Notes under the pieces: generated by a model | Databases searched by the model: none | What the model saw: only the letters and a program-made list of their open reading frames with translations | What the model was told of the DNA's origin: nothing | Shown here: piece after piece, positions 1,966-15,006 of the stretch | Layout: every line of letters begins with the position of its first letter | Numbering within the stretch: the stretch's first letter is position 1 | Translations under genes and position numbers: made by a program | Assembly: GCA_046761065.1 (NCBI GenBank) | Contig: JBHIFL010000018.1 | Location: forward strand, 1 to 55,891 | DNA length: 55,891 bases | Reading direction: 5' to 3' | Origin: Candidatus Heimdallarchaeota archaeon | GTDB lineage: Archaea; Asgardarchaeota; Wukongarchaeia; Wukongarchaeales; JBHIFL01

Positions 1966-2410
1966 TTTATTGCCCCCTACCTCCTAAGGATGTTTTTTTG
2001 AACGGAGAAAGAGAAATAACGGAATGAGAAGCGAAAGAACCTTTTGAGAAAGATTAGACTTTTTATGATTGGCATACAAATTCCATCCTATGATGTATCC
2101 ATTCAATTAAACCTTCACTGTTACATTAATATACTTTTCTGCTGAAATTAGCAAGACAGATTTTATCTAAAAAATTAAGTAATATAGGAGTGCTTTCATC
2201 TTGTTGTAGAAGTTATTTGGCATTTTTCATGTTGGATGCTTTGTAATGTTTAGTCTTCGGTTTCATCAATAAGTGAGAAAATGATTAAATCGAAAAAATG
2301 TAAGTTTTTGCTTTATTTTTTGAAAAAAACATGAGATTAAGCTTTAAATGCGAAAAAACGAAAAGTATAATGCTTCAAAACTTCCGGTTTTGGAGCACTC
2401 AATTCTAAGT

Positions 2411-2437
2411 AGAAAAGTATAATTAGCAGAAAAGTAT
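2411..2437 (+). promoter_or_regulatory. Direct repeat AGAAAAGTAT x2 upstream of the antitoxin gene; possible autoregulatory operator
   Basis: Copies at 2411-2420 and 2428-2437, and a third GAAAAGTAT at 2360-2368. Confidence 0.35.
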
Positions 2438-2455
2438 TATAAATTATGATAAAAT

Positions 2456-2734
2456 ATGACGACCTCTATTAAAGTAGAAGACTCAACGAAGAGAAAGATT
2501 GATAAAATCCAAGCCCAACTACTTTTACAATCGGGGAAGAAAGTTACTCAGCAGCAGCTTATTGAGTTAATGGCTGATTGGGCCACTCAAAACTTAGAAA
2601 CCCTCAAAAATATTCTTTTAGATAACCCAATCATACTAACTGACGAAGAAATTACGGCTTATAAGAAATATCGGATCTCAACAGGAATAAAGACCAACCC
2701 ACAGACCATCGACCAGATTCTTTACGGAGAATAG
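2456..2734 (+). CDS. Putative VapB-like antitoxin
   Basis: 92 aa with an N-terminal TTSIKV strand plus helices and a C-terminal IDQILYGE; directly upstream of a PIN gene; paralog of 21082..21354. Confidence 0.75.
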   Translation: MTTSIKVEDSTKRKIDKIQAQLLLQSGKKVTQQQLIELMADWATQNLETLKNILLDNPIILTDEEITAYKKYRISTGIKTNPQTIDQILYGE

Positions 2735-2740
2735 GATAGA

Positions 2741-3163
2741 ATGAGCATTCTCATTGATACAGGAGTCTGGATTGGGTATTTCAACATCGATGATTCACAG
2801 GCCGAACGAAGTAATGAAATCATAGAAGAAGTCCAACGAGGGAAATATGGGATCGCATGGACCACTACCTTCATCATCGATGAATTGTTTACGTTTTTAG
2901 TACGAGCGACTCGCAATCTCCAGTTAGCGATAAACGCGACTACGGTCGTGTTGGGAAAAAAAGAAGACGTTAAACCGTTTTTGCGGATCTATTGTATCAC
3001 CTACGAAGAGTGTTTGGAGGCTTTGAATTTAGCTGAGAGATATAAAGATCGACAAATGAATTTCACAGATTTAGTTTCAATAGTTGCATATAATAAACTG
3101 GGATTATCTTATATTGCTAGTTATGATAACCATTTTACAGGAATTCTTACAAAAGTTGACTAG
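2741..3163 (+). CDS. vapC: PIN-domain VapC toxin
   Basis: ILIDTG, DE, FTD and SYDNHF acidic PIN motifs. Confidence 0.88.
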   Translation: MSILIDTGVWIGYFNIDDSQAERSNEIIEEVQRGKYGIAWTTTFIIDELFTFLVRATRNLQLAINATTVVLGKKEDVKPFLRIYCITYEECLEALNLAERYKDRQMNFTDLVSIVAYNKLGLSYIASYDNHFTGILTKVD

Positions 3164-3278
3164 CTTCTGTTGACCAATAAACCATAATACAATAAAAATC
3201 TAAGCTATAAACTATAAAATGTGAGAGTTAATCTCTTTTCGTAAAATTTCGATGTAAAACCTTCTTAACATAGGTGTG

Positions 3279-3635
3279 TCATGACTCTAATGCGGGAAGA
3301 ATAATCCCTTGAAATTTCTGGGCTTCAGGTAGTGGACCTTCTACCCTCAGCTTCTTTGCAAAAAAGGCCTCCACAATATCTTCCTCACCTTTGTAAATTT
3401 TTGCGATGGTATTAGTATCCGATCGCAAAGTGACGGTTGGGGCCTCATGCGAACTGTCCACAAAATCGGTTTGGTTTTGTCCTTTAAAGACCAAATGAAA
3501 TGGCCCCTTTTCTCCTTCTAATTCAAATTGGATTATGGCTTTCCACCCACTCATACGTTCTTTTGATTTTTCATTAGTGTTTATTAACTCAACGGCTTTT
3601 CGGAGTAGTTCTTTTCCTTCACCCATCTGTTTCAC
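3279..3635 (-). CDS. SCP2 sterol/lipid-binding domain protein
   Basis: IQFELEG...PTVTL...G..DIVEAFFAKKLRVEG, a typical SCP2 signature. Confidence 0.85.
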   Translation of the reverse strand: MKQMGEGKELLRKAVELINTNEKSKERMSGWKAIIQFELEGEKGPFHLVFKGQNQTDFVDSSHEAPTVTLRSDTNTIAKIYKGEEDIVEAFFAKKLRVEGPLPEAQKFQGIILPALES

Positions 3636-3743
3636 CTTCTCTTAAGAATTTAATTCAAATTTTCGACCTCTTAATCGGTTTTATCCTTCGAACTCTTTCA
3701 AGACATAGAATTTAAATATAGTAGTTTCTGTATGCATTTTCGA

Positions 3744-3764
3744 TATCGGCATTCAATACCGATA
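3744..3764. promoter_or_regulatory. Imperfect 21-bp palindrome; candidate PadR operator
   Basis: TATCGGCATTCAATACCGATA between the divergent SCP2 and PadR genes; an 11-bp half-site recurs inverted at 4230-4240. Confidence 0.55.
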
Positions 3765-3832
3765 GCTGCATAACTAAAAACGCAAAATACGATTCATTTG
3801 AAACCTTGATAAATAATGGGCTGAGGAATTTT

Positions 3833-4198
3833 ATGAACTCATATATACGCAGTCTTAAAAAGGGTATTCTACGAGGTTACATCCTTTACGTTCTTAATAA
3901 CCTACCTAATGCACCCAAGGGTCTCTGTGGAATCGAGATCCTTGAAAAAATCAAACAGGATTTGGAAATGAAACTTGGATCTGGGACTTTATATCCAATC
4001 TTACATGAGATGGAATCCCGAGGAGTTATCTCCGGAAAATGGGATGTAAGTGATGGAATCCGTAAAAAATATTATCGAATTACAGAAAATGGACGTGTTC
4101 TGCTTACCAAATTCTGCAAGCAGCTTAAACATACTGTCATGCCTCTTTTACAAATGGAGGCTCCAATTCCCGCCCATCCTGCCTCTTCAGTAGAGTAG
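3833..4198 (+). CDS. PadR-family transcriptional regulator
   Basis: LKKGIL, GSGTLYPILHEME..G and RKKYYRITENG motifs; GAGGA RBS before ATG 3833. Confidence 0.9.
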   Translation: MNSYIRSLKKGILRGYILYVLNNLPNAPKGLCGIEILEKIKQDLEMKLGSGTLYPILHEMESRGVISGKWDVSDGIRKKYYRITENGRVLLTKFCKQLKHTVMPLLQMEAPIPAHPASSVE

Positions 4199-4324
4199 AT
4201 TACTTCCAATATTCACTAAACACAAGAATAATGCCGATATTTTGTCATCTGGCGCATCGGTAGGGCCAACATAAGCTCTTTACAATGTAATGCGCTGAGT
4301 TACGTTCTAAAAGAGGTGCAGGTT

Positions 4325-5098
4325 ATGCATGAACTTGAAATAAAGGAAAAGAAAGAGGATATAATTGAACCCAAAAGCGAGACGGAAGTTCTCATCGATC
4401 TTTTGAGAACACGTCGAAGTGAACGCCGGTTTACCGGCGCAAACATTCCTGATGAACACATCGAACGAATCTTGGATGCTCTTCGCACTGCCCCCAGCCC
4501 GGAGAACATGCAAATGTGGCGTTACGTTGTTATTCGTAAGGATCAGGAGATGAAAAAGCTCCTAGCCGATACAGCACAAGCCGTTTCTGCAGCTGTCTTC
4601 GGAAGCTATCCTTACGAAGCTACGACTGGACGCCTCTGGTATCTCCCCTCTCAGAATCGAGCAGCTACATACGAAGAAATGAAAGACGGGGAACTTTTTC
4701 GCTATCCGGAGAAGGCTGATACGGTCATCCTCGGCTTAGGATCGGAATTTTGGCATGATGCTACGGTTATGTACCCGATGCATCTCTTCGGTTCGGTTGT
4801 AGTTGCTATGGGAATGTTTTCCGCTTGGCTTGTTGCCCATTCCATGGGATATGGAGTGGCATGGCAAGCATTTCCCTTGGCAGATCAACGGATTCAGGAA
4901 CTGATCACCGATAAGCTAGGGATTCCCCGGACGTGGATCCCAGTCGGAACTCTGAATATTGGAGTAATTGAAGGCGGTGTTCAGGCACGACGAATGCTAG
5001 GCCCTTCTCGCTGGCCTCTAGAAGGCGTCGTGTTTTCTGAGCGTTGGGGCAATCCGTATATTCGGCTAGCCTTCCGAAAAGAAAGGTGTGACCTATGA
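4325..5098 (+). CDS. Nitroreductase-family flavoprotein with extended insert
   Basis: RRSERRF, APSPENMQMWRYVVI, AHSMGYG and R.PLEGVVFSERW motifs; GAGGTG RBS. Confidence 0.88.
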   Translation: MHELEIKEKKEDIIEPKSETEVLIDLLRTRRSERRFTGANIPDEHIERILDALRTAPSPENMQMWRYVVIRKDQEMKKLLADTAQAVSAAVFGSYPYEATTGRLWYLPSQNRAATYEEMKDGELFRYPEKADTVILGLGSEFWHDATVMYPMHLFGSVVVAMGMFSAWLVAHSMGYGVAWQAFPLADQRIQELITDKLGIPRTWIPVGTLNIGVIEGGVQARRMLGPSRWPLEGVVFSERWGNPYIRLAFRKERCDL

Positions 5099-5358
5099 CA
5101 ATAGAGATAGAATTAGATGAGTCGACGAAAACAAAACTCGAAACCCTCGCCAGCGAGGCTGGTGGTCTCTCGTTAAAGAGTGCAATTGAACTCATTCTCA
5201 GGCAGTTTGTCGAAAACCCTGGGGGGCGAATCTACGTTGGAACCTGGTTTCGGGGTAATGTGGGATCTGCAAAAGGGTTTCGTTTTGTCGTCCAGTGGCC
5301 TTTTAAAACGGGTTTTGAACGCGTGAAAGGTGATATTGCAACTTCTTGGAAAAAATAG
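5095..5358 (+). CDS. Small protein: N-terminal RHH-like domain plus aromatic beta-rich C-terminus
   Basis: TIEIEL strand followed by two amphipathic helices; ATGA overlap with the nitroreductase stop. Confidence 0.65.
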   Translation: MTIEIELDESTKTKLETLASEAGGLSLKSAIELILRQFVENPGGRIYVGTWFRGNVGSAKGFRFVVQWPFKTGFERVKGDIATSWKK

Positions 5359-5373
5359 ATGGAGGATTTTATT

Positions 5374-5661
5374 ATGGCGAAATTTCGAAAACACCCTGAT
5401 TCAGAATGGCCCGGGTTCGGTCCATTTTTAAAACCAGAACACATCAGGCAGTTAGAATACTTCGGTGGGAATGAATATCTAGTACAATCTATGGTAGAAA
5501 ATCAAAAAGGCCGTATAATCGTTACCCTCGAACACGAAGCTCATCAAAAGTTCCTCAAGGCAGTTCGCAACAAATATGGGAATATGTTCGCAGAAACTGT
5601 GAACCGGGTGGCTCGAGAGGCAGTTATGAAATGGGTGGAAGAAAACCTGGAAACTGTATAA
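5374..5661 (+). CDS. Small protein with C-terminal RHH-like domain
   Basis: GRIIVTL...F..AV..KYG...AREAVMKW pattern of archaeal RHH proteins; GGAGG RBS at 5361-5365. Confidence 0.65.
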   Translation: MAKFRKHPDSEWPGFGPFLKPEHIRQLEYFGGNEYLVQSMVENQKGRIIVTLEHEAHQKFLKAVRNKYGNMFAETVNRVAREAVMKWVEENLETV

Positions 5662-5673
5662 GGTGTGAATGGA

Positions 5674-6048
5674 ATGACTAGTGAAGCAGTCAATCGTGTA
5701 CGTCAGTTCATGCGTCACATATGTTCGGCAGTTAATGCCAGTGAAGATCATAAAAAGTTTGTAGCTCAATGGTTAGGCCCGTATATAGGGAAAGTGCTGC
5801 AAGTTGATGCTGAAGGTGAAAAATTCTACACCGTGATAACGAAAGAAAAACTGTGGATGGAAGAAGGAGATTATCCTTCTCCTGATGTCATCTACCGCGT
5901 AAAGGATGCCCAAGTGCTGCTCGATATTTTTACTGGGCGAACTCCATTTCGAGATGTGATGAAGTCTTGGGACTTGGTGGTAATTGGTGCCGCCCATGAA
6001 TCAGTACCCCTCGCACAATTAATCTTCAACGTTATGCAAGCAATCTAG
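5674..6048 (+). CDS. Divergent SCP2-like lipid-binding protein
   Basis: VLQV...FY.VI...EG..PSPDVIY...LLDIFTG.......DLVVIG pattern. Confidence 0.7.
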   Translation: MTSEAVNRVRQFMRHICSAVNASEDHKKFVAQWLGPYIGKVLQVDAEGEKFYTVITKEKLWMEEGDYPSPDVIYRVKDAQVLLDIFTGRTPFRDVMKSWDLVVIGAAHESVPLAQLIFNVMQAI

Positions 6049-6066
6049 ATGGAGGTGCCGCAAAAT

Positions 6067-7203
6067 ATGGTAAAAAGAATAGCTGTCATCGGATGTGGAG
6101 CAATGGGTTCAGGTATTACCTATCAGGCTGCACGATTCGGGTATCCCGTATCTGTTGTAGAAGTCAATCAAGAGCTTTTAGACAAGGGTATGAACAAGAT
6201 CCGTAATGATATTCGGTATGGGATCGACAGAGGCAAAATCACGCTTAAAGATGCTGAAACCTTGTTTGCTCGGATCACACCCACAGTCAACCTCCAAGAA
6301 GCCGTAGGTACCGCCGATATGGTGATCGAAGCGATTGTGGAGAATATGCAAATCAAAAAAGACCTATTTGCTCAACTTGATCAGTATGCACCGGCTGATG
6401 CCATCCTCGCTTCCAATACAAGCTCTCTTAGCATCACAGAAATTGCAAGTGCTACCCAACGGCCTGAGTTAGTGATTGGGATGCATTTCTTCAATCCTGT
6501 GCCTGCAATGCGTTTGCTTGAACTGGTCATCACAGACCAGACCTCTGGACAAACAATCGAGATCGCAGAGCAAGTCGGCAAACAATTAGATAAAATCACA
6601 GTCCGCGCCAAAGATACCCCTGGTTTCATTGTCAACCGGGTGTTGCTCCCCGAGATTGGTGAAGCAATAGCTATCTTGGAAGAGGGTATTGCAACCCCTG
6701 AAGAGATTGATAAAATAACAGTAAGTCGTCTTGGATGGCCTGTTGGCCCACTTACCCTTAGTGATTTCACAGGACTTGATGTTGGGCTCTCAATAGCTAA
6801 ATATATGCATGAAATGCTCGGTGAGTGTTGGAAACCCTCTCCATATCTCGAAAAGTTAGTTGCGGAGGGGAAATTCGGTGATAAACAGGGAGGCGGGTGG
6901 TTACAACATTATCCAACTTTTGGTATAGAAAAGTCGCCAAAAGCCACCGAGTATACCCCTGAGCTCCTAGTTCACCGCATTGTGGTGCGTATCCTCGGAG
7001 AAGCGGCAAAGCTAGTTGATCTAGGTGTTACTGAAGAAGATATCAACACTGCATGCCGATATGGCTTGAATTGGCCAAAAGGACCTTTTGAATTGATTAG
7101 TGAACTTGGAGCCGCAGCTCTTCTCAGTATGAGCCAGAAACTATATTCTGAAAAGGGTGAGTGTTACAAATTACCTGCCACATTGGAAAAGATGTTGAAA
7201 TAG
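6067..7203 (+). CDS. 3-hydroxyacyl-CoA dehydrogenase with duplicated C-terminal domain
   Basis: GCGAMGSGI, EAIVE, ASNTSSL, GMHFFNP and PGFIVNR motifs; second WPKGP domain. Confidence 0.95.
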   Translation: MVKRIAVIGCGAMGSGITYQAARFGYPVSVVEVNQELLDKGMNKIRNDIRYGIDRGKITLKDAETLFARITPTVNLQEAVGTADMVIEAIVENMQIKKDLFAQLDQYAPADAILASNTSSLSITEIASATQRPELVIGMHFFNPVPAMRLLELVITDQTSGQTIEIAEQVGKQLDKITVRAKDTPGFIVNRVLLPEIGEAIAILEEGIATPEEIDKITVSRLGWPVGPLTLSDFTGLDVGLSIAKYMHEMLGECWKPSPYLEKLVAEGKFGDKQGGGWLQHYPTFGIEKSPKATEYTPELLVHRIVVRILGEAAKLVDLGVTEEDINTACRYGLNWPKGPFELISELGAAALLSMSQKLYSEKGECYKLPATLEKMLK

Positions 7204-7288
7204 AAGATCAATACCCAGCCTAGCAAACCCTTTTAGAACTCTTTTAAGAGGTAATAAACAACCAAAGAAACAGATAGGAGACAAAAAA

Positions 7289-8107
7289 ATGAGCACGTAT
7301 GAAACCGTCACAGTTTCAAAAGAAGGAAGTTTCCTCGCGCCAGAACCGAACATCGCAATTGTTAAGTTAAACCGCCCGGAAACTTTGAATGCCTTTAATG
7401 ACCAACTGATTACCGATTTAGAAGCCGCATTTAAGGAGATCGAGCAGGACGAGAGTATTCGCGCTGTTATCGTCACGGCTGAAGGCGAAAAAGCCTTTTC
7501 AGCTGGAGCCGATCTGAAACAAGCAAGTACAATCAGTCCAGAGGAAGCAGCGACTCAGGCAACGGCCTTAGTTGAAAAGGGACAGCGGGTCTTCACGTAC
7601 ATTGAAAACTTTCCAAAACCTACGGTCTGTGCGATTAATGGATTAGCATTAGGTGGTGGATTAGAACTCTCGCTTTGTTGTGATCTTAGAGTTGCTAGTA
7701 AAGAAGCCAAAATGGGCAGTCCCGAAGTCCAAGTTGGACTCATTCCCTCTTGGGGTGGCTGTGATCGTTTACCCCGTCTTGTAGGCCTTTCAAAAGCCAA
7801 GGAAATTGTCCTTACAGGCGGAATGTTATCAGCAGATCAGGCTGAAAAGATTGGGTTAGTCAACAAAGTTGTCCCTCCAGATGAACTACATAGCACTGCA
7901 ATGTTCATGGCTCAAAAGCTTGCGGATAATGCGCCAGTCGCCATGCGGTTAGCCAAGCAAGTGTTGAACAAATCCCTCGATCAAGACCTCGATGCAGGGC
8001 TTGCCCTTGAGCGTAACGCAACGGTGGAATGCTTCAAAACCGAAGACATTCAAGAAGGAATTAAAGCCGTCTTTGAGAAACGTAAAGCGCAATTCAAAGG
8101 CAAATAA
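7289..8107 (+). CDS. Enoyl-CoA hydratase (crotonase)
   Basis: AFSAGADL, GGGLEL and PEVQVG motifs; both catalytic Glu present. Confidence 0.95.
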   Translation: MSTYETVTVSKEGSFLAPEPNIAIVKLNRPETLNAFNDQLITDLEAAFKEIEQDESIRAVIVTAEGEKAFSAGADLKQASTISPEEAATQATALVEKGQRVFTYIENFPKPTVCAINGLALGGGLELSLCCDLRVASKEAKMGSPEVQVGLIPSWGGCDRLPRLVGLSKAKEIVLTGGMLSADQAEKIGLVNKVVPPDELHSTAMFMAQKLADNAPVAMRLAKQVLNKSLDQDLDAGLALERNATVECFKTEDIQEGIKAVFEKRKAQFKGK

Positions 8108-8140
8108 CTAGATGTGGGGTTTAGCCCTGTATGAGAAAGA

Positions 8141-8158
8141 TCTCCTTCTTCTTTTTTC
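8141..8158 (+). terminator. Pyrimidine/oligo-T archaeal terminator candidate
   Basis: TCTCCTTCTTCTTTTTTC about 35 nt after the crotonase stop. Confidence 0.45.
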
Positions 8159-8341
8159 TAATTAGGGGAAAAAGAATGTGATTTGATCTCAAGACTATCC
8201 TCATCTCACTTATTCTATTTAATTCCTTAAAAGGTAAACATGACTGAAGCCCTTGTTTTACTTCACAAATAATGATATTATAAAAATCAACGAAAAATAC
8301 AAATTTGAAACGATCATAACTCAACTACTTGAGGTTGATAA

Positions 8342-8629
8342 ATGCCAATCTACATTTTGCTCTCCAAACTAACCGCGGAAGGACGGAAAACTATCAAAGA
8401 CAACCCTGAAAGAATCCGAGAAGTCAATATGGAAATCGAAAGTTTTGGTGCCAAAATTGTCAAACAATACGCTGTATTAGGACCCTATGACTTCATCAAT
8501 GTGGTTGAGGCTCCAGATAATGAAACTATTACACGGGTATCTGTTGAGTTTGGCGCCCGAGGTACTGTGGAAATAACGAGCATGCCAGCGATGCCGATCG
8601 ACGACTTCATCGCCATGGTCAAGAAATAA
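8342..8629 (+). CDS. GYD-domain protein
   Basis: MPIYILL, LGPYDFINVVEAPD; followed by an oligo-T tract at about 8641-8657. Confidence 0.88.
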   Translation: MPIYILLSKLTAEGRKTIKDNPERIREVNMEIESFGAKIVKQYAVLGPYDFINVVEAPDNETITRVSVEFGARGTVEITSMPAMPIDDFIAMVKK

Positions 8630-8876
8630 GAACTACAAATCTTTCTTCCTTTTTTTTAAAGCCAAAAGATTGTTTAGGATTACCGAGTATTTTTAATTAT
8701 TATCCTATTGAGATTAATATGTAATAGTAGGAAATATGAATCGCCACAGGTTTCCTACGTATGTATGCACAATAATACAAAAAACATCGAGCAACTACAA
8801 AAAAGAATACCCAGTGAAAAAATTTCAAACTCGGAGAGTTGAGTATAAACTGATGTATTCTAGGAGATGAGATTTA

Positions 8877-10037
8877 TTGAAAGAAGAAGTCGCAGTTGTT
8901 GGTGTTGGACATGCCAAATTTGGCAAACGTCACGATGTCACTCTTAGAGAACTCGTGCATGAGGCGGCACGGGATGGGTTTGAGGATGCAGGTTTAACAC
9001 CAAACGACATAGAATCTAATGTTGTTGGTATTTGTGGTGATTATTTCACAGGCCAAGGGTCTCCCGCTCCGCTACTTAGTGATTATATCGGCATGTCCCA
9101 AAAACCCACAATTCGAGTCGAATCCGCTTGTGCTACCGGTACAGCCGCGCTTCGTACAGCTTGGGCTCAGATAAAAGCTGGACAACATGACTTAGTCGCA
9201 GCTATTGGTGTTGAACAAATGACTTTAGTTAGCTCTGCTCAGGCAACCGAAATGATGGCTCGTGGGGGTGATTTGCGTTGGGAATACCCCTTTGGCTGTA
9301 CGTTTCCCGGGTTTTATGCCCATTACGCTTCTGCACACATGAAAGAATTCGGGACAACCCGCAAACAGTTGTCATCTGTTGGCGTAAAGAATCACCATTA
9401 TGGCGCGAAGAACCCATACGCTCACTTACAGAAGGAAGTGTCTCTGGAAGAGGCCATGAAAGCGGTTTGGATTGCTTATCCTTTGAATCTTTATGATTGC
9501 TGCCTCATTTCGGATGGTGCAGCTATTGCAATCCTTGCAAGTGCCGAAAAAGCGAAAAAAATTACTGATACACCAATTTGGATCACAGGATTAGGCTCAT
9601 CTTCAGATACGATGCTCTTATCAGGCAGAAAATCTTTGGTTGGGTTACCTTCTGCGACCCGTGCAAGCCAAGCGGCGTTCAAGATGGCTGGATTAGGACC
9701 TGATGACATCGATGTAGCCGAAGTTCATGATTGCTTCTCAATCGCAGAGATTATGGCTTATGAAGACATTGGGTTTTGCAAAAAAGGTGAAGGAGGCAAG
9801 TTAGTCGAAGAAGGGCAGACCTACCATGACGGAAATATCCCAGTTAACGTGGACGGGGGATTAAAATCAAAAGGACATCCACTCGGCGCCACGGGTGTGT
9901 CCCAATGCTACACGATAGTCAAACAACTGCGAGGTGAAGCGCCCCAAGGATGCCAAGTGGCGGGTCCTGAGATTGGACTCCAGCACAACGTGGGTCAGCA
10001 TGGTCAATATGTCAATGTCCTAATTTATCAGAGATGA
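8877..10037 (+). CDS. SCP2-type (archaeal) thiolase
   Basis: ESACATG, EVHDCF, GHPLGATG and HNVG motifs. Confidence 0.93.
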   Translation: MKEEVAVVGVGHAKFGKRHDVTLRELVHEAARDGFEDAGLTPNDIESNVVGICGDYFTGQGSPAPLLSDYIGMSQKPTIRVESACATGTAALRTAWAQIKAGQHDLVAAIGVEQMTLVSSAQATEMMARGGDLRWEYPFGCTFPGFYAHYASAHMKEFGTTRKQLSSVGVKNHHYGAKNPYAHLQKEVSLEEAMKAVWIAYPLNLYDCCLISDGAAIAILASAEKAKKITDTPIWITGLGSSSDTMLLSGRKSLVGLPSATRASQAAFKMAGLGPDDIDVAEVHDCFSIAEIMAYEDIGFCKKGEGGKLVEEGQTYHDGNIPVNVDGGLKSKGHPLGATGVSQCYTIVKQLRGEAPQGCQVAGPEIGLQHNVGQHGQYVNVLIYQR

Positions 10038-10453
10038 ATAAAATGACTGATTTTGGCTATATCTTTGACAAACTTCAACGGAGTCCGTTTATGGAACAGT
10101 TCGTGACCTACCTAAAAGAAGGTAAACTTATGGCGACCAAGTGTACGAGTTGTGGAACTATGCATATGCCACCTCGCGAGCATTGCACCTGCTTGAACAC
10201 TGAGATGGAGTGGGTGGAGGTCACCCCGGAAGCGACCCTGAAAGCCTTTACCATGATCAACTTCGCCCCAGATGTTCTAGCTGACAAACAGCCTTATTTC
10301 GTTGGGATCGCGGAAACCCCGGAAGGCCTCCGCATGATGGGCTGGCTCACAGGCGATGCCACCCAGAATCCCCAGGTGGGCATGAAACTCAAGATCTCTC
10401 CCCAGGAACTCGAGGGCGACAAGATCGTCTACAAATTCACGAAAGTATTGTAA
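10034..10453 (+). CDS. DUF35 Zn-ribbon/OB-fold thiolase partner
   Basis: KCTSCG...PPREHCTC followed by an OB fold; ATGA overlap with the thiolase. Confidence 0.9.
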   Translation: MNKMTDFGYIFDKLQRSPFMEQFVTYLKEGKLMATKCTSCGTMHMPPREHCTCLNTEMEWVEVTPEATLKAFTMINFAPDVLADKQPYFVGIAETPEGLRMMGWLTGDATQNPQVGMKLKISPQELEGDKIVYKFTKVL

Positions 10454-11300: not shown

Positions 11301-12170
11301 TTAAACCTGAGGAAGAAGCGGCTGCGCGTTGTCAGCTAGGATGGCTGAAAGCTTATCTTCTGGAATATAGAGGTCGCGATGAGGCGCGTACCTATTAACA
11401 GACATAAGCATGTCCACATAAGGCTTCTGACGAACACCGGGGTAGTCGGTGCCAAAGATCATCTTGTTCAAGACCCCGAGGTTCAGCGCAGTGAGGAGGT
11501 CCCGCCAGAGGAGGTAGACGTAACTTGGATGGTTCACGTTGCCGTATGGCCAACTTATGTCACACCAAACATTCCTATGCTTCCGAACCACATATAACGT
11601 TTCAGTAACCCGTGGGTAACCCAGATGGGCGAGAACAATCTTGAGTTTAGGGAAGGAACAAGCAATGTTATCGATGAGTGTGGGATCCGCATGTTTCATC
11701 AGATCCTTGGGTTCCGGCATCCCTGCGTGGTGGAGTAACACGGGCATATCAATACCCACAGCTACCTCATAGACCCTACAGGCCTTCGGGTCATCTGCAA
11801 AGTAACCGTCAGTTGTAGGATAGAGTTTCAACCCGAATAGATCAAGTTCTTGCCTTTGTCGAAGTACTTCTTCCTCCGCCCCATGCTTTAAAGGATTGAC
11901 GTAACCGAAACCAACGAACCTGTCTGGTGCCTGTTTGACAAATGTAGAGACTTGTTCGGGGCTCGTTCTCATATCGGATAAAACCACAGCCTTGTTGATG
12001 CCAGCTGCATCAAGGTCGGTGATGAACTCCTCCTTAGTAACTGAAATCACCGTTGGATTCTCAAGATCAGAATACTCCATCATGGATATGTGGCAGTGGT
12101 AGTCCACTTTTGGAACTGACCTTTGTTCCTTGGACTCATGATCATTCCACTCTTTTCCGAGAAGTGACAA
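11301..12170 (-). CDS. Amidohydrolase_2 family metal-dependent hydrolase
   Basis: DYHCH, GLKLYP, LHHAG, AHLG and FGTDYP motifs. Confidence 0.9.
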   Translation of the reverse strand: MSLLGKEWNDHESKEQRSVPKVDYHCHISMMEYSDLENPTVISVTKEEFITDLDAAGINKAVVLSDMRTSPEQVSTFVKQAPDRFVGFGYVNPLKHGAEEEVLRQRQELDLFGLKLYPTTDGYFADDPKACRVYEVAVGIDMPVLLHHAGMPEPKDLMKHADPTLIDNIACSFPKLKIVLAHLGYPRVTETLYVVRKHRNVWCDISWPYGNVNHPSYVYLLWRDLLTALNLGVLNKMIFGTDYPGVRQKPYVDMLMSVNRYAPHRDLYIPEDKLSAILADNAQPLLPQV

Positions 12171-12282
12171 TCCTATAACCCCTTATTCTAGATAGGAAGA
12201 TATCTTAAGGATTTTAGGGTATACCGCCTATACATGAAAGATTTTTTATCTGAAACCTTTGACCACGCATCAGGTGTAGAAT

Positions 12283-12555
12283 ATGACTTGGGAAGAACCT
12301 GTCTTCAAAGCCACAGTTGAGTCCATCAAAAGCCACTGCAACGCAGGGCATAAGGTTGGCGATATATTTGAGATTAATACCCATAAAACTGGAGGTATTT
12401 GTGGTTGGTGTTACCACGACCTCTTTCCGACACTAATGACCCTTGCAATGGGGGGTTCCATTCCATGGCGCGAAAATCAAGATGAGTTCACTTACGAATG
12501 CCCAGATAGACATAACCTTGTTACCTTTAGGATCACAAAAATTCAGAAAAAATAA
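12283..12555 (+). CDS. TIGR04076-like small Cys-rich protein
   Basis: HC.AGHKVGD.F...ICGWCYH.LFP...PW...CPD..N.V.F pattern. Confidence 0.8.
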   Translation: MTWEEPVFKATVESIKSHCNAGHKVGDIFEINTHKTGGICGWCYHDLFPTLMTLAMGGSIPWRENQDEFTYECPDRHNLVTFRITKIQKK

Positions 12556-12583
12556 GAAATTGGGAAGTCATGTCATGTTATTT

Positions 12584-13648
12584 TCACCATACCTTCTCAC
12601 ACAACTTTATAAAGTTCTCACCCATGATCTTTCGGATTTCTATCTCTGAATAGCCGAGTGCGACCAGTCCTTTGGTCACATTGAGAAAGCCTGTCAAATC
12701 TTCAAACCCAATAACCCGTTTCTACTCAAATGTCCATTTTCCAAAGACGGCAGGCCATGTTTTCTGTTCTTCCTCCCACTCTTTTGGATTGGCAGAGCTA
12801 AAGACCCCAAACGGAAGATCAATGCCGAGTCCAACATGGTCGATGCCTGTAATCTCAATAATCCGCGTGAGGTGTGTGAAGTAATCGTCCAGTGTGGGAT
12901 GAATTCCTTCTTTTGTATATGTGATAGGAGTCCATGCCGCTACCCCAATGACACCACCTTTCTCTGCTAACGCTCTGAATTGGTCGTCTGTCTTGTTTCG
13001 GGGATTTCCATTAATATCTCGGCAACAGGTATGAGTGAAGGCGACTGGATCTTTCGAAAACTCCAACGCATCCGCTATTACTGCGTCACTGGTATGACTG
13101 AGATCTACTACGATTCCTAGGTGGTTCATTTCCTCGAGAACTTGGAGTCCGAAATCGGTCAATCCTTTCTGAGTCCGCTCAAGGCATCCGTCTCCAAGTA
13201 AATTGGCTTCATTATAAGCGAGTTGGCAGATTTTGATCCCAAGGCGATAGAGGATTCTTAAGAGTCGCAGATCGTCATCAATCATTTTCATGTTTTGTGG
13301 ACCAATAATCACAGCAATCTTGTGTTCATGCTTAGCTCTTCTAATATCATCCACAGTATTGACGAGTAAAGCATCCTCTCTGTGTTGTTCAAGAACCTTG
13401 TACCACTTACTAATTTCAGTGATAGCATTTCGAAAATTACCGCCCGTAGAAAAAGTTGTATTGTTGATAGCTGTTATACCCGCTTCGAGTGCGGATTTGA
13501 AATATCTTCCATCTGTGGATTTTACCCAATCTGCGTCTACAAGCGCACACGCATCAAAAACTAAGAGATCTTTATGTAAAGCAATAGCCTGCTCTTTTTG
13601 ATCCTGGCTTAAGCTTGGGACCACTACCTGTTTATAGTTTTCTCCCAA
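12584..13648 (-). pseudogene. Membrane dipeptidase (peptidase M19) with one in-frame TAG
   Basis: QLAYN, GLTDFG, DLSH, RNK.D and DHVGLGID motifs. After TAG at 12722-12724 the frame continues KRVIGFEDLTGFLNVTKGLVALGYSEIEIRKIMGENFIKLCEKVW to TGA 12584, the conserved M19 C-terminus. Confidence 0.85.
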
Positions 13649-13773
13649 ATTATTATTCCTCCAACTTATTCCTAATTTACCGCAAAACTGATCACCACTA
13701 ATTTAAAAAGTGGGACCTTGCTAACCACTGGAGAACATGTTCTGGAGATGTAAATAAAGGTTAGTGGTCGAAT

Positions 13774-15006
13774 GTGATCAAAACTCAACGTCTATCCGAA
13801 GAAAAGCGGGCGTCTGCAAAATTTCTACTCCCTTCACTGGCTATATCTTACTTTGCGACGGTACCTCCGGCGATTCTAGTAAGTTTACTTCTCATCGACA
13901 TTGGGGACACCTTCAACCGTTCTGTTGGTGTGACAGGACAGATTCAAACTGCCGCTTCTCTTGTCGGAGCCATTTCCGCAGTTCTCGTGGGCGCTTTGAG
14001 TGTGCGATTCAACTATAAATCATTACTCCTGCTAGGGCTATTATTCATCAACATCACTGCTTTAGGGTGTGCAGTTTCTTTAAATTTCGCCTTGATGCTC
14101 ATAGCGTTTTCTCTATCTGGATTAGGGATTAATATCGTTGAACCAATGCTTTTTTCGCTTGTTGGAGAGCATTTCCCTCTTGAGAAGCGAACAAATGCCA
14201 TTGGATGGGTACTTACTGGCGTATCCCTATCAAGCTTGATAGGAGCACCAATCATTGGTTTCATCGTCAGTTTAGAGTTTGGAAACTGGCGCTTAGCATT
14301 CCTAATGTACGTACTACCTGTGTCTCTCCTAGGTATAGCGATGGCGGCTAAAGGAGTGCCCACTCCCTCCCAGCAACCCCACCACCCAATAGTCAAAGGA
14401 AAGTATTTGGAGGGGTTTAAGGAGATCTTCACAAACCGCTCGGCTATGATGTGCTTGGTTGGTGCAGCCCTTTCAATAGCCGGCTTTCAAGCAATTGTAC
14501 TTTACGGTGCATCTTATTTCAGGCAAAGATTTCAGCTATCTATAGAATATGTATCTTTTTTATTTCCAGTCTTTTCCTTATGTTATATTTTTGGGAACCA
14601 GATTAGTAGCCGAGTAGTAAACCAATATGGGAGGAAGCTTATAACAGTTTTATCTGCTTTTTTCGCTGGCATACTCGTAATCTCTTTCATGAACGTGCCC
14701 AATATCTGGCTAGCTTATTTATTTACTTGCTTAGGGGGCATGTTATTCGGGATGCTAGCGACAGCATCTTTTAGTTTAACGCTTGAACAAGTCCCAAGAT
14801 TTCGGGGCACCATGATGTCACTTCGTTCAGCATCTACTAGTATGGGTGCAGCACTTGGCGCAGGAGTAGGAGGTTTGGCGCTGTTCTGGTGGGATTTTGA
14901 AAGTGTAGGAATTGCTCTAGGAGCACTGAGCATCGCTGCCGCAATAATCTTCAACATCTTGGTATTTGACCCTACGAGTACCGACTCCTATGCCAGCCAA
15001 TCCTGA
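13774..15006 (+). CDS. MFS transporter
   Basis: About 12 hydrophobic segments; GALSVRFNYK and NQYGRK loop motifs. Confidence 0.9.
   Translation: MIKTQRLSEEKRASAKFLLPSLAISYFATVPPAILVSLLLIDIGDTFNRSVGVTGQIQTAASLVGAISAVLVGALSVRFNYKSLLLLGLLFINITALGCAVSLNFALMLIAFSLSGLGINIVEPMLFSLVGEHFPLEKRTNAIGWVLTGVSLSSLIGAPIIGFIVSLEFGNWRLAFLMYVLPVSLLGIAMAAKGVPTPSQQPHHPIVKGKYLEGFKEIFTNRSAMMCLVGAALSIAGFQAIVLYGASYFRQRFQLSIEYVSFLFPVFSLCYIFGNQISSRVVNQYGRKLITVLSAFFAGILVISFMNVPNIWLAYLFTCLGGMLFGMLATASFSLTLEQVPRFRGTMMSLRSASTSMGAALGAGVGGLALFWWDFESVGIALGALSIAAAIIFNILVFDPTSTDSYASQS

Follow-up and report, generated by a model that had tools for sequence, protein, structure and literature searches.

Among the described systems that resemble the gene cassette examined here, the nearest one to combine a nitroreductase with a small partner is the cyclodipeptide oxidase (CDO) AlbA/AlbB. 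Its flavin mononucleotide (FMN) enzyme has the nitroreductase fold, the gene of the enzyme overlaps with that of the small partner, and this partner is required for redox chemistry at an alpha,beta C-C bond. The cassette is located at positions 4325-6048 of contig JBHIFL010000018.1 from a Candidatus Heimdallarchaeota archaeon, analyzed here as one 55.9-kb stretch of DNA ("the window"), and comprises four genes for a nitroreductase-fold protein (NTR), two small proteins with ribbon-helix-helix (RHH) or RHH-like parts (RHH1 and RHH2), and an SCP2-fold protein. It is a real conserved unit of which no published description was found in the literature on nitroreductases with SCP2, RHH, archaea, or enoyl-CoA. 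A preliminary description of the locus had drawn the parallel to AlbA/AlbB. This parallel holds as an analogy and fails for the partner proteins: AlbB, of family PF19585, forms a dimeric four-helix bundle (PMC11055893), a fold different from that of RHH1 and RHH2 and without similarity to them, and neither these two proteins nor their 36 and 39 homologues match PF19585. AlbA itself (8uc3) is hit by the NTR family profile (E = 6.5e-15) in the N-terminal FMN region, no better than generic nitroreductases. Unlike the cassette, CDO has one partner and no SCP2 protein, belongs to bacterial cyclodipeptide synthase clusters, uses O2, and forms filaments; no cyclodipeptide synthase was found among the annotated neighbors in the window or in related loci. 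The mode of action may bear some likeness to that of a CDO, but the cassette does not belong to the CDO family.

A second kind of counterpart acts on lipids. CLA-ER of Lactobacillus plantarum (4qlx/4qly) works beside a hydratase and a dehydrogenase. Like Listeria Rha1, it is a nitroreductase-fold flavoenzyme described as a reducer of the C=C bond in fatty-acid-derived (lipid-derived) enones and alkenals, and Rha1, which is annotated as a nitroreductase, has been implicated in 4-hydroxynonenal reduction (PMC8174450). In contrast to the cassette, both enzymes are bacterial and single-subunit, with neither RHH nor SCP2 partners and without the 37-amino-acid (aa) insert of NTR described below. The NTR family profile aligns with CLA-ER (4qlx) at E = 1.3e-6, over the N-terminal 60 residues only. 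The best sequence relatives of known structure are the structural-genomics nitroreductases 4dn2 (E = 3.5e-25) and 4g8s (E = 1.7e-22), followed by BluB (E = 1.8e-17), all of which have the N-terminal part and a C-terminal GPSRxPLE motif in common with NTR. However, 4dn2 and 4g8s lack the insert and have no known partner proteins.

For the small proteins, PutA and NikR offer examples of an RHH module combined with a flavoenzyme or a ligand-sensing domain, and the RHH domain of PutA aligns weakly with residues 45-93 of RHH2 (Z 3.8, rmsd 1.9 in VIA-align). In PutA and NikR, however, a homodimeric, DNA-binding RHH is fused to the enzyme, whereas the cassette encodes two different small proteins with a unique tail and head, respectively. 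UbiJ and UbiT of ubiquinone synthesis, and Archaeoglobus AF_1534, are stand-alone SCP2 folds that serve an enzyme system for a hydrophobic substrate, and by structure they match the fourth cassette protein best. The cassette has no Ubi enzymes, however, and its SCP2-fold protein represents a distinct sequence family without a match to the Pfam SCP2 model.

Gene organization and conservation of the cassette

The region from the cassette to the gene of the thiolase partner DUF35 (4325-10453) is encoded wholly on the plus strand and contains the following genes:

4325..5098, plus strand: NTR, nitroreductase-fold gene, cassette gene 1 (PF00881, E = 6.1e-22; ATG start)
5095..5358, plus strand: RHH1, cassette gene 2 (N-terminal RHH, then conserved tail GG-IY-G-W...VVQWPF)
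5374..5661, plus strand: RHH2, cassette gene 3 (conserved head Y-KAP..EW-GYP-L..EDIE, then C-terminal RHH-like strand-helix-helix)
5677..6048, plus strand: SCP2-fold protein of a distinct subfamily, cassette gene 4 and the last (profile versus AF_1534, E = 4e-9)
6049..7203, plus strand: 3-hydroxyacyl-CoA dehydrogenase, HADH (PF02737, E = 1e-60; PF00725)
7289..8107, plus strand: enoyl-CoA hydratase (crotonase), ECH (PF00378, E = 2.7e-72)
8877..10037, plus strand: SCP-x-type thiolase (PF22691, PF00108)
10034..10453, plus strand: DUF35, thiolase partner with ChsH2-like OB fold and zinc ribbon (PF01796, PF12172)

The tight coupling of the four genes ahead of HADH, crotonase, thiolase, and DUF35, which had been pointed out in the preliminary description, is evident from these coordinates. 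The NTR stop and the RHH1 start overlap in an ATGA at 5095-5098. A gap of 15 nucleotides (nt) separates RHH1 from RHH2 and contains a GGAGG 8 nt upstream of the RHH2 ATG, another 15 nt separate RHH2 from the SCP2-fold gene (3 nt with the alternative GTG start at 5665), and HADH begins at 6049 immediately after the stop of the latter, with no gap at all. Thiolase and DUF35 again overlap in an ATGA. The RHH2 start at 5374 is favored over one at 5359 by the N-termini of the homologues (MAK[FY]RK), and the longest open reading frame (ORF) of NTR has a GTG start at 4316, as compared with the ATG at 4325.

Whole-genome and contig searches yielded 69 non-redundant loci with an NTR orthologue (42-65% identity). 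When the window proteins were used as tblastn queries, all four cassette genes were detected in 54 of the 69 loci and RHH2 and the SCP2-fold gene in 62-63, while clustering recovered a divergent RHH1 in most loci that fell short of four matches. Overall, about 65 of the 69 loci have the four genes in this arrangement. The order NTR-RHH1-RHH2-SCP2 and the common strand are invariable, with projected median intergenic gaps of about -10, 3, and -15 nt. Hence, the four genes do behave as the conserved unit that had been suspected, with a constant order in loci of several archaeal phyla. The Asgard hosts are labeled Hermod-, Thor-, and Jordarchaeia, and NTR protein clusters are also named after Hod- and Heimdallarchaeota; hosts outside the Asgard archaea are Bathyarchaeia, one Nitrososphaeria metagenome-assembled genome (MAG), Geothermarchaeales, Korarchaeia-type Thermoproteota, Theionarchaea, and Methanofastidiosia.

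With 67 representatives among 1.84 billion proteins, the RHH2 family is very small. Used as a marker, RHH2 was detected in 103 of the 301 Asgard genomes, with a sharply family-specific distribution: it is present in 67/76 genomes of family f6 (Thorarchaeota-type), 17/19 of f12, 5/5 of f7, and 6/6 of f18 (3-4 copies each), as opposed to 0/29 of f4 and 1/68 of f9. The 3-4 RHH2 copies, carried for example by the f18 genomes G046, G063, G069, and G087, suggest several paralogous cassettes per genome, and f18 contexts include HEAT-repeat and HerA-like neighbors (L021, L028).

Link to acyl-CoA metabolism

The cassette is repeatedly linked to acyl-CoA genes. In 49 of the 69 loci, from at least five lineages, such genes lie within 6 kb of NTR (counted were HADH, ECH, thiolase, DUF35, acyl-CoA dehydrogenase (ACAD), acyl-CoA synthetase, and ADP-forming CoA ligase). 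The set HADH-ECH-thiolase-DUF35 directly follows the cassette in Thorarchaeota, the present genome, Bathyarchaeia, the Nitrososphaeria MAG, and Geothermarchaeales, and the ADP-forming CoA ligase is found nearby in several lineages. Hermod/Thor-type loci have an acyl-CoA synthetase upstream and an ACAD about 3 kb downstream on the opposite strand, with the ACAD within about 3 kb in some 12 of these loci; they also hold genes for OsmC, a coiled-coil protein, TPR, and SPFH proteins. In three f6 genomes, an NTR paralogue of about 30% identity is located directly 3' of an ACAD (L073:5047-5799 on the minus strand, also L074 and L077). It has a C-terminal LGPxRxPxE...WGNPY motif in common with NTR and a different insert, and is followed by a 194-aa protein without a Pfam match; a thiolase/DUF35 pair there is divergently transcribed.

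The preliminary description had also remarked on the lack of an ACAD in the operon. This is correct for the whole window, which contains none, but not for the genome, where seven ACADs are encoded, two of them adjoining genes for electron transfer flavoprotein (ETF) alpha and beta subunits, of which there are three pairs in all. Crotonase is encoded by at least six genes and HADH by three. None of the latter is located on a contig with an ACAD; the beta-oxidation genes of this genome are as a rule dispersed, so that an ACAD-free HADH operon is normal there. A comparison over 41 genomes showed 2-13 ACADs in all 15 genomes with the cassette, ACADs in 16 of the 26 genomes without it, and the cassette in none of the 10 ACAD-less genomes; these relatives are not independent, so that the co-occurrence describes a pattern without the weight of a statistical test. 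The cassette thus travels with ACAD-type metabolism rather than replacing ACAD. The earlier idea that a missing alpha,beta-dehydrogenation would be provided by the module was not borne out by these counts, by the seven ACADs and three ETF pairs, or by the Hermod/Thor-type loci with their nearby ACAD. Homologous loci often include an ACAD, although not always.

The four proteins

NTR matches PF00881 with 79 bits (cut-off 23.5) and is thus a member of the nitroreductase superfamily. In an alignment of 42 orthologues, the RRSxR motif for binding of the FMN phosphate has R30, R31, and R34 invariant and S32 conserved in at least 90% of the sequences, and P57-S58-P59-E60-N61 (PSPEN), a motif of the APS..N.Q type, is invariant throughout. 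Judging from these motifs, NTR is probably an FMN enzyme. The aromatic-rich insert, which had been put at about 40 aa, was confirmed at about 37 aa (profile positions 88-124); it does not align with the closest solved relatives 4dn2 and 4g8s. Rich in aromatic residues and arginine, it is among the best-conserved parts of NTR, with F92, G93, R103, R112, G122, L124, F125, Y127, and P128 invariant in the same orthologues. Database names of the NTR clusters go no further than "nitroreductase family protein". An assignment as F420/FbiB or BluB orthologue was rejected on scores far below the NCBIfam cut-offs.

RHH1 can be placed with moderate confidence in the RHH superfamily (strand-helix-helix with a G-x-S/T turn), on matches that are weak but consistent: its N-terminal part hits CopG and ORF56 by profile (E = 4e-4 to 8e-4), and FitA-like, NikA-like, and RHH_1 families match 10, 7, and 4 of the 36 members, respectively, all below the Pfam cut-offs. 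Its most conserved residues, G43, G49, W68, and P69, all lie in the tail. The AlphaFold2 (AF2) model of RHH2 has an extended segment (44-53) and two helices (54-68 and 73-92) with pLDDT above 90. Foldseek found no match to this model at E <= 0.001, and the best Z of 4.8 in a wide VIA-align search is too low for a fold assignment. Those alignments that span residues 43-95 are, at a weak Z of 3.8-4.5, with RHH proteins (MazE6, TacA, CopA, ParD, NikR, and PutA), and hhalign sets the segment in register with the RHH of RHH1 (E = 0.006). The modeled C-terminal part of RHH2 is therefore best called RHH-compatible, short of a proven RHH. Look-alikes of both proteins in the ESM Atlas provided weak RHH-type leads and nothing more.

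The mirror-image layout of the two proteins, RHH-tail as opposed to head-RHH, had been recognized from the window and is well supported by natural fusions, in which the tail is joined to the head. Two representatives of the RHH2 family, 175 and 166 aa long, consist of RHH1 fused to RHH2 (RHH1::RHH2). In 19 of 20 Thorarchaeota species genomes, the first type is read as one ORF without interruption (the genes are split only in CP070761), and the second, from a distant lineage, has 31% identity to the first and a different linker. The order RHH - tail - head - RHH gives a pseudo-dimer in a single chain, about 85 aa of which make up the middle part. A profile of the fused protein against the PDB retrieved CopG again and nothing further. 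Their natural fusion into one polypeptide shows that RHH1 and RHH2 form one functional pair. Whole RHH1 and whole RHH2 showed no similarity in hhalign. A (Q/E)WP-aromatic-x-P/G motif occurs both in the RHH1 tail (residues 66-72, window 5290-5310, VVQWPFKTG) and in the RHH2 head (residues 10-18, window 5401-5427, SEWPGFGPF), and it is this short (Q/E)WP motif alone that aligns between tail and head (E = 0.22, not significant). The common motif may point to two equivalent arms that dock on a partner with two-fold symmetry. The charges of the two halves are equivocal with respect to DNA binding: the RHH domain of RHH1 is net acidic (median -2) and the C-terminal part of RHH2 mildly basic (median +3). 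A toxin-antitoxin reading of the RHH genes was rejected because a toxin partner is lacking and all four genes stay together across phyla. Prediction of a complex of two NTR, two FMN, RHH2, and RHH1 gave an ipSAE of 0.00-0.01, which is evidence neither way.

The SCP2-fold protein does not match PF02036 at E <= 0.1 and belongs to a divergent subfamily. A profile of 42 orthologues finds AF_1534 with the E-value listed above, and the AF2 model (pLDDT 95.8) retrieves AF_1534, UbiJ-SCP2, and insect, yeast, and human SCP2 with a Foldseek probability of 1.0, which assigns it to the alpha/beta SCP2 fold. Directly 3' of this gene, and sometimes overlapping with it, some loci have a gene for a solenoid-repeat protein (L036:11670-12689, L044:11725-12729, L021:5909-6886), which is of the TPR type in Hermod/Thor-type loci and of the HEAT-repeat type in an f18 genome. 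This protein may be a fifth, lineage-specific scaffold component.

Proposed function and alternative explanations

Our preferred, still tentative interpretation is that the four genes encode one archaeal module for an accessory FMN-dependent redox step on a hydrophobic acyl substrate, alongside ACAD/ETF metabolism. RHH1 and RHH2 would pair via their RHH halves into a pseudo-symmetric heterodimer, to which the RHH1 tail and the RHH2 head would add an extra, family-specific part. The SCP2-fold protein would hold the hydrophobic chain, while the module would carry out a two-electron step on an acyl-CoA or a lipid-derived alpha,beta-unsaturated carbonyl. Most likely, NAD(P)H would serve to reduce an activated C=C bond, from enoyl or enone to the saturated product. 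This direction is favored because the hosts are anaerobes and the acyl-/enoyl-CoA couple (near -10 mV) is far more positive than the FMN of a typical nitroreductase, and because the nitroreductase-fold precedents CLA-ER and Rha1 run that way. We infer that the RHH pair touches NTR or the SCP2-fold protein, and the substrate and the reaction direction are deduced in the same way. Several observations weigh against this interpretation. The similarity of NTR to CLA-ER, AlbA, and FbiB is confined to the generic N-terminal FMN region, and the closest solved relatives, 4dn2 and 4g8s, carry no known function. Loci of Jordarchaeia, Korarchaeia, Theionarchaea, and Methanofastidiosia are without acyl-CoA neighbors and are flanked by, for example, a trp operon, UDP-glucose dehydrogenase, or SMC, and the genome counts overstate the association with ACADs. 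NTR paralogues also stand alone without the small genes (L055, L057; of the small genes, L062 has RHH2 only), and therefore the enzyme may not need them. No fusion of RHH1, RHH2, or the SCP2-fold protein to NTR was found, even in searches for longer forms of RHH1 and the SCP2-fold protein, although this is weak evidence. Finally, RHH is classically a DNA-binding fold, and DNA binding would be in keeping with an RKGR that most members conserve ahead of the RHH2 strand.

In a less probable but still serious alternative, RHH1 and RHH2 would form a heterodimeric RHH transcription factor that senses a ligand or the redox state through its tail and head and controls the operon in a manner similar to PutA or NikR, so that NTR and the SCP2-fold protein alone would be metabolic. 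The matches of RHH1 to the CopG, ORF56, FitA, and NikA families, the weak alignment of RHH2 residues 43-95 with RHH DNA-binding domains including those of PutA and NikR, the mildly basic C-terminal part of RHH2, and the NTR paralogues without small genes are all compatible with such a regulator. However, the RHH domain of RHH1 is acidic, conservation peaks in the non-RHH tail and head and not in the ribbon, and the basic residues of the ribbon are lost in a divergent RHH2 subgroup. Visual inspection upstream of NTR revealed no operator motif across lineages, only lineage-specific TATA-like boxes. Moreover, the genes reside inside the operon and are translationally coupled across phyla, and the locus already has a PadR regulator. 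Because of the conserved tail and head and the acidic RHH1 domain, we prefer the view that the RHH pair may be a scaffold or adaptor. A bolder form of the preferred interpretation, which we consider unlikely as it stands, would see here a new four-component enzyme system, in which NTR is held by a pseudo-symmetric RHH1/RHH2 scaffold (the RHH being structural and not DNA-binding), is fed by the SCP2-fold protein, and provides the enoyl-thioester reductase (or dehydrogenase) activity in an acyl carrier protein-independent, CoA/SCP2-based cycle of fatty-acyl elongation or degradation in Asgard archaea and Bathyarchaeia.

Two further explanations appear decidedly improbable. The module could complete an ACAD-less beta-oxidation cycle as its alpha,beta-dehydrogenase or enoyl reductase, as had been proposed from the window, and the arrangement NTR...SCP2-HADH-ECH-thiolase-DUF35, conserved among Thorarchaeota, Bathyarchaeia, and others while the nearest 4 kb or so are free of ACAD genes, would be in line with this role; also, some nitroreductase-fold enzymes, such as AlbA, do dehydrogenate C-C bonds. 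Yet the ACADs and ETF pairs of the present genome, the absence of cassettes from the ACAD-less genomes among the 41 compared, the adjacent ACAD in Hermod-type loci, the NTR paralogue next to an ACAD, and the occurrence of the cassette away from any beta-oxidation gene all speak against a substitute for ACAD, and a low-potential FMN enzyme in an anaerobe would be ill-suited to acyl-CoA oxidation. It is equally doubtful that the module serves in stress defense by detoxifying electrophiles from lipids, hydroperoxide products, or quinones in membranes, a task in which SCP2 would extract the damaged lipid. About 13 Hermod/Thor-type loci have genes for OsmC and a coiled-coil protein ahead of the cassette and for TPR and SPFH/Band 7 proteins behind it, and the implication of Rha1 in 4-hydroxynonenal reduction (PMC8174450) would match such a function, but the OsmC/SPFH context is limited to one lineage, the HADH-ECH-thiolase context is more widespread, and most hosts are strict anaerobes.

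Other features of the locus

Three further genes flank or interrupt the region described above:

3279..3635, minus strand: canonical stand-alone SCP2 gene (PF02036, E = 7.6e-17), local context outside the conserved cassette
3806..4198, plus strand: PadR-family regulator, 5' of the cassette (PF03551, E = 5.8e-15)
8342..8629, plus strand: GYD-domain protein between crotonase and thiolase (PF08734, E = 8e-30)

The canonical SCP2 gene is the second-best match of the genome to the profile of the cassette SCP2-fold protein (E = 5.7e-11). The PadR gene is particular to the present locus and is not kept beside the cassette elsewhere. Between it and the cassette, about 35 nt 5' of the NTR start, lies a perfect 11-nt palindrome, TTACAATGTAA (window 4280-4290), which is a candidate operator for PadR or the RHH pair. 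The GYD gene is flanked by gaps of 234 and 247 nt, and no such gene occurs at the equivalent position in other loci. Toward the start of the window, a DDE transposase (PF01609) at 131-1213 is followed by a low-GC stretch (0.35 over 2001-4000), which contains a PIN-domain gene (2741-3163) after a 92-aa ORF; the two (2456-3163) look like a VapBC-type toxin-antitoxin pair. An amidohydrolase_2 and an M19 membrane dipeptidase (both minus strand) and an MFS transporter (plus strand), 3' of the operon at 11301-15006, are seemingly unrelated to the cassette.

Implications for archaeal fatty-acid metabolism

Fatty-acid handling in Asgard archaea and Bathyarchaeia bears on the origin of eukaryotic membranes. 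These organisms possess many beta-oxidation-type genes yet no acyl carrier protein. The cassette is a concrete, clonable candidate for a missing or accessory step, because it is conserved and lineage-wide, occurs only in ACAD-bearing genomes among those compared, and heads a HADH-crotonase-thiolase operon in Thorarchaeota and Bathyarchaeia. If the proposed function is true, it would be a rare case of RHH proteins as enzyme partners, a role for which the natural RHH1::RHH2 fusion of Thorarchaeota would be an easy construct for testing.

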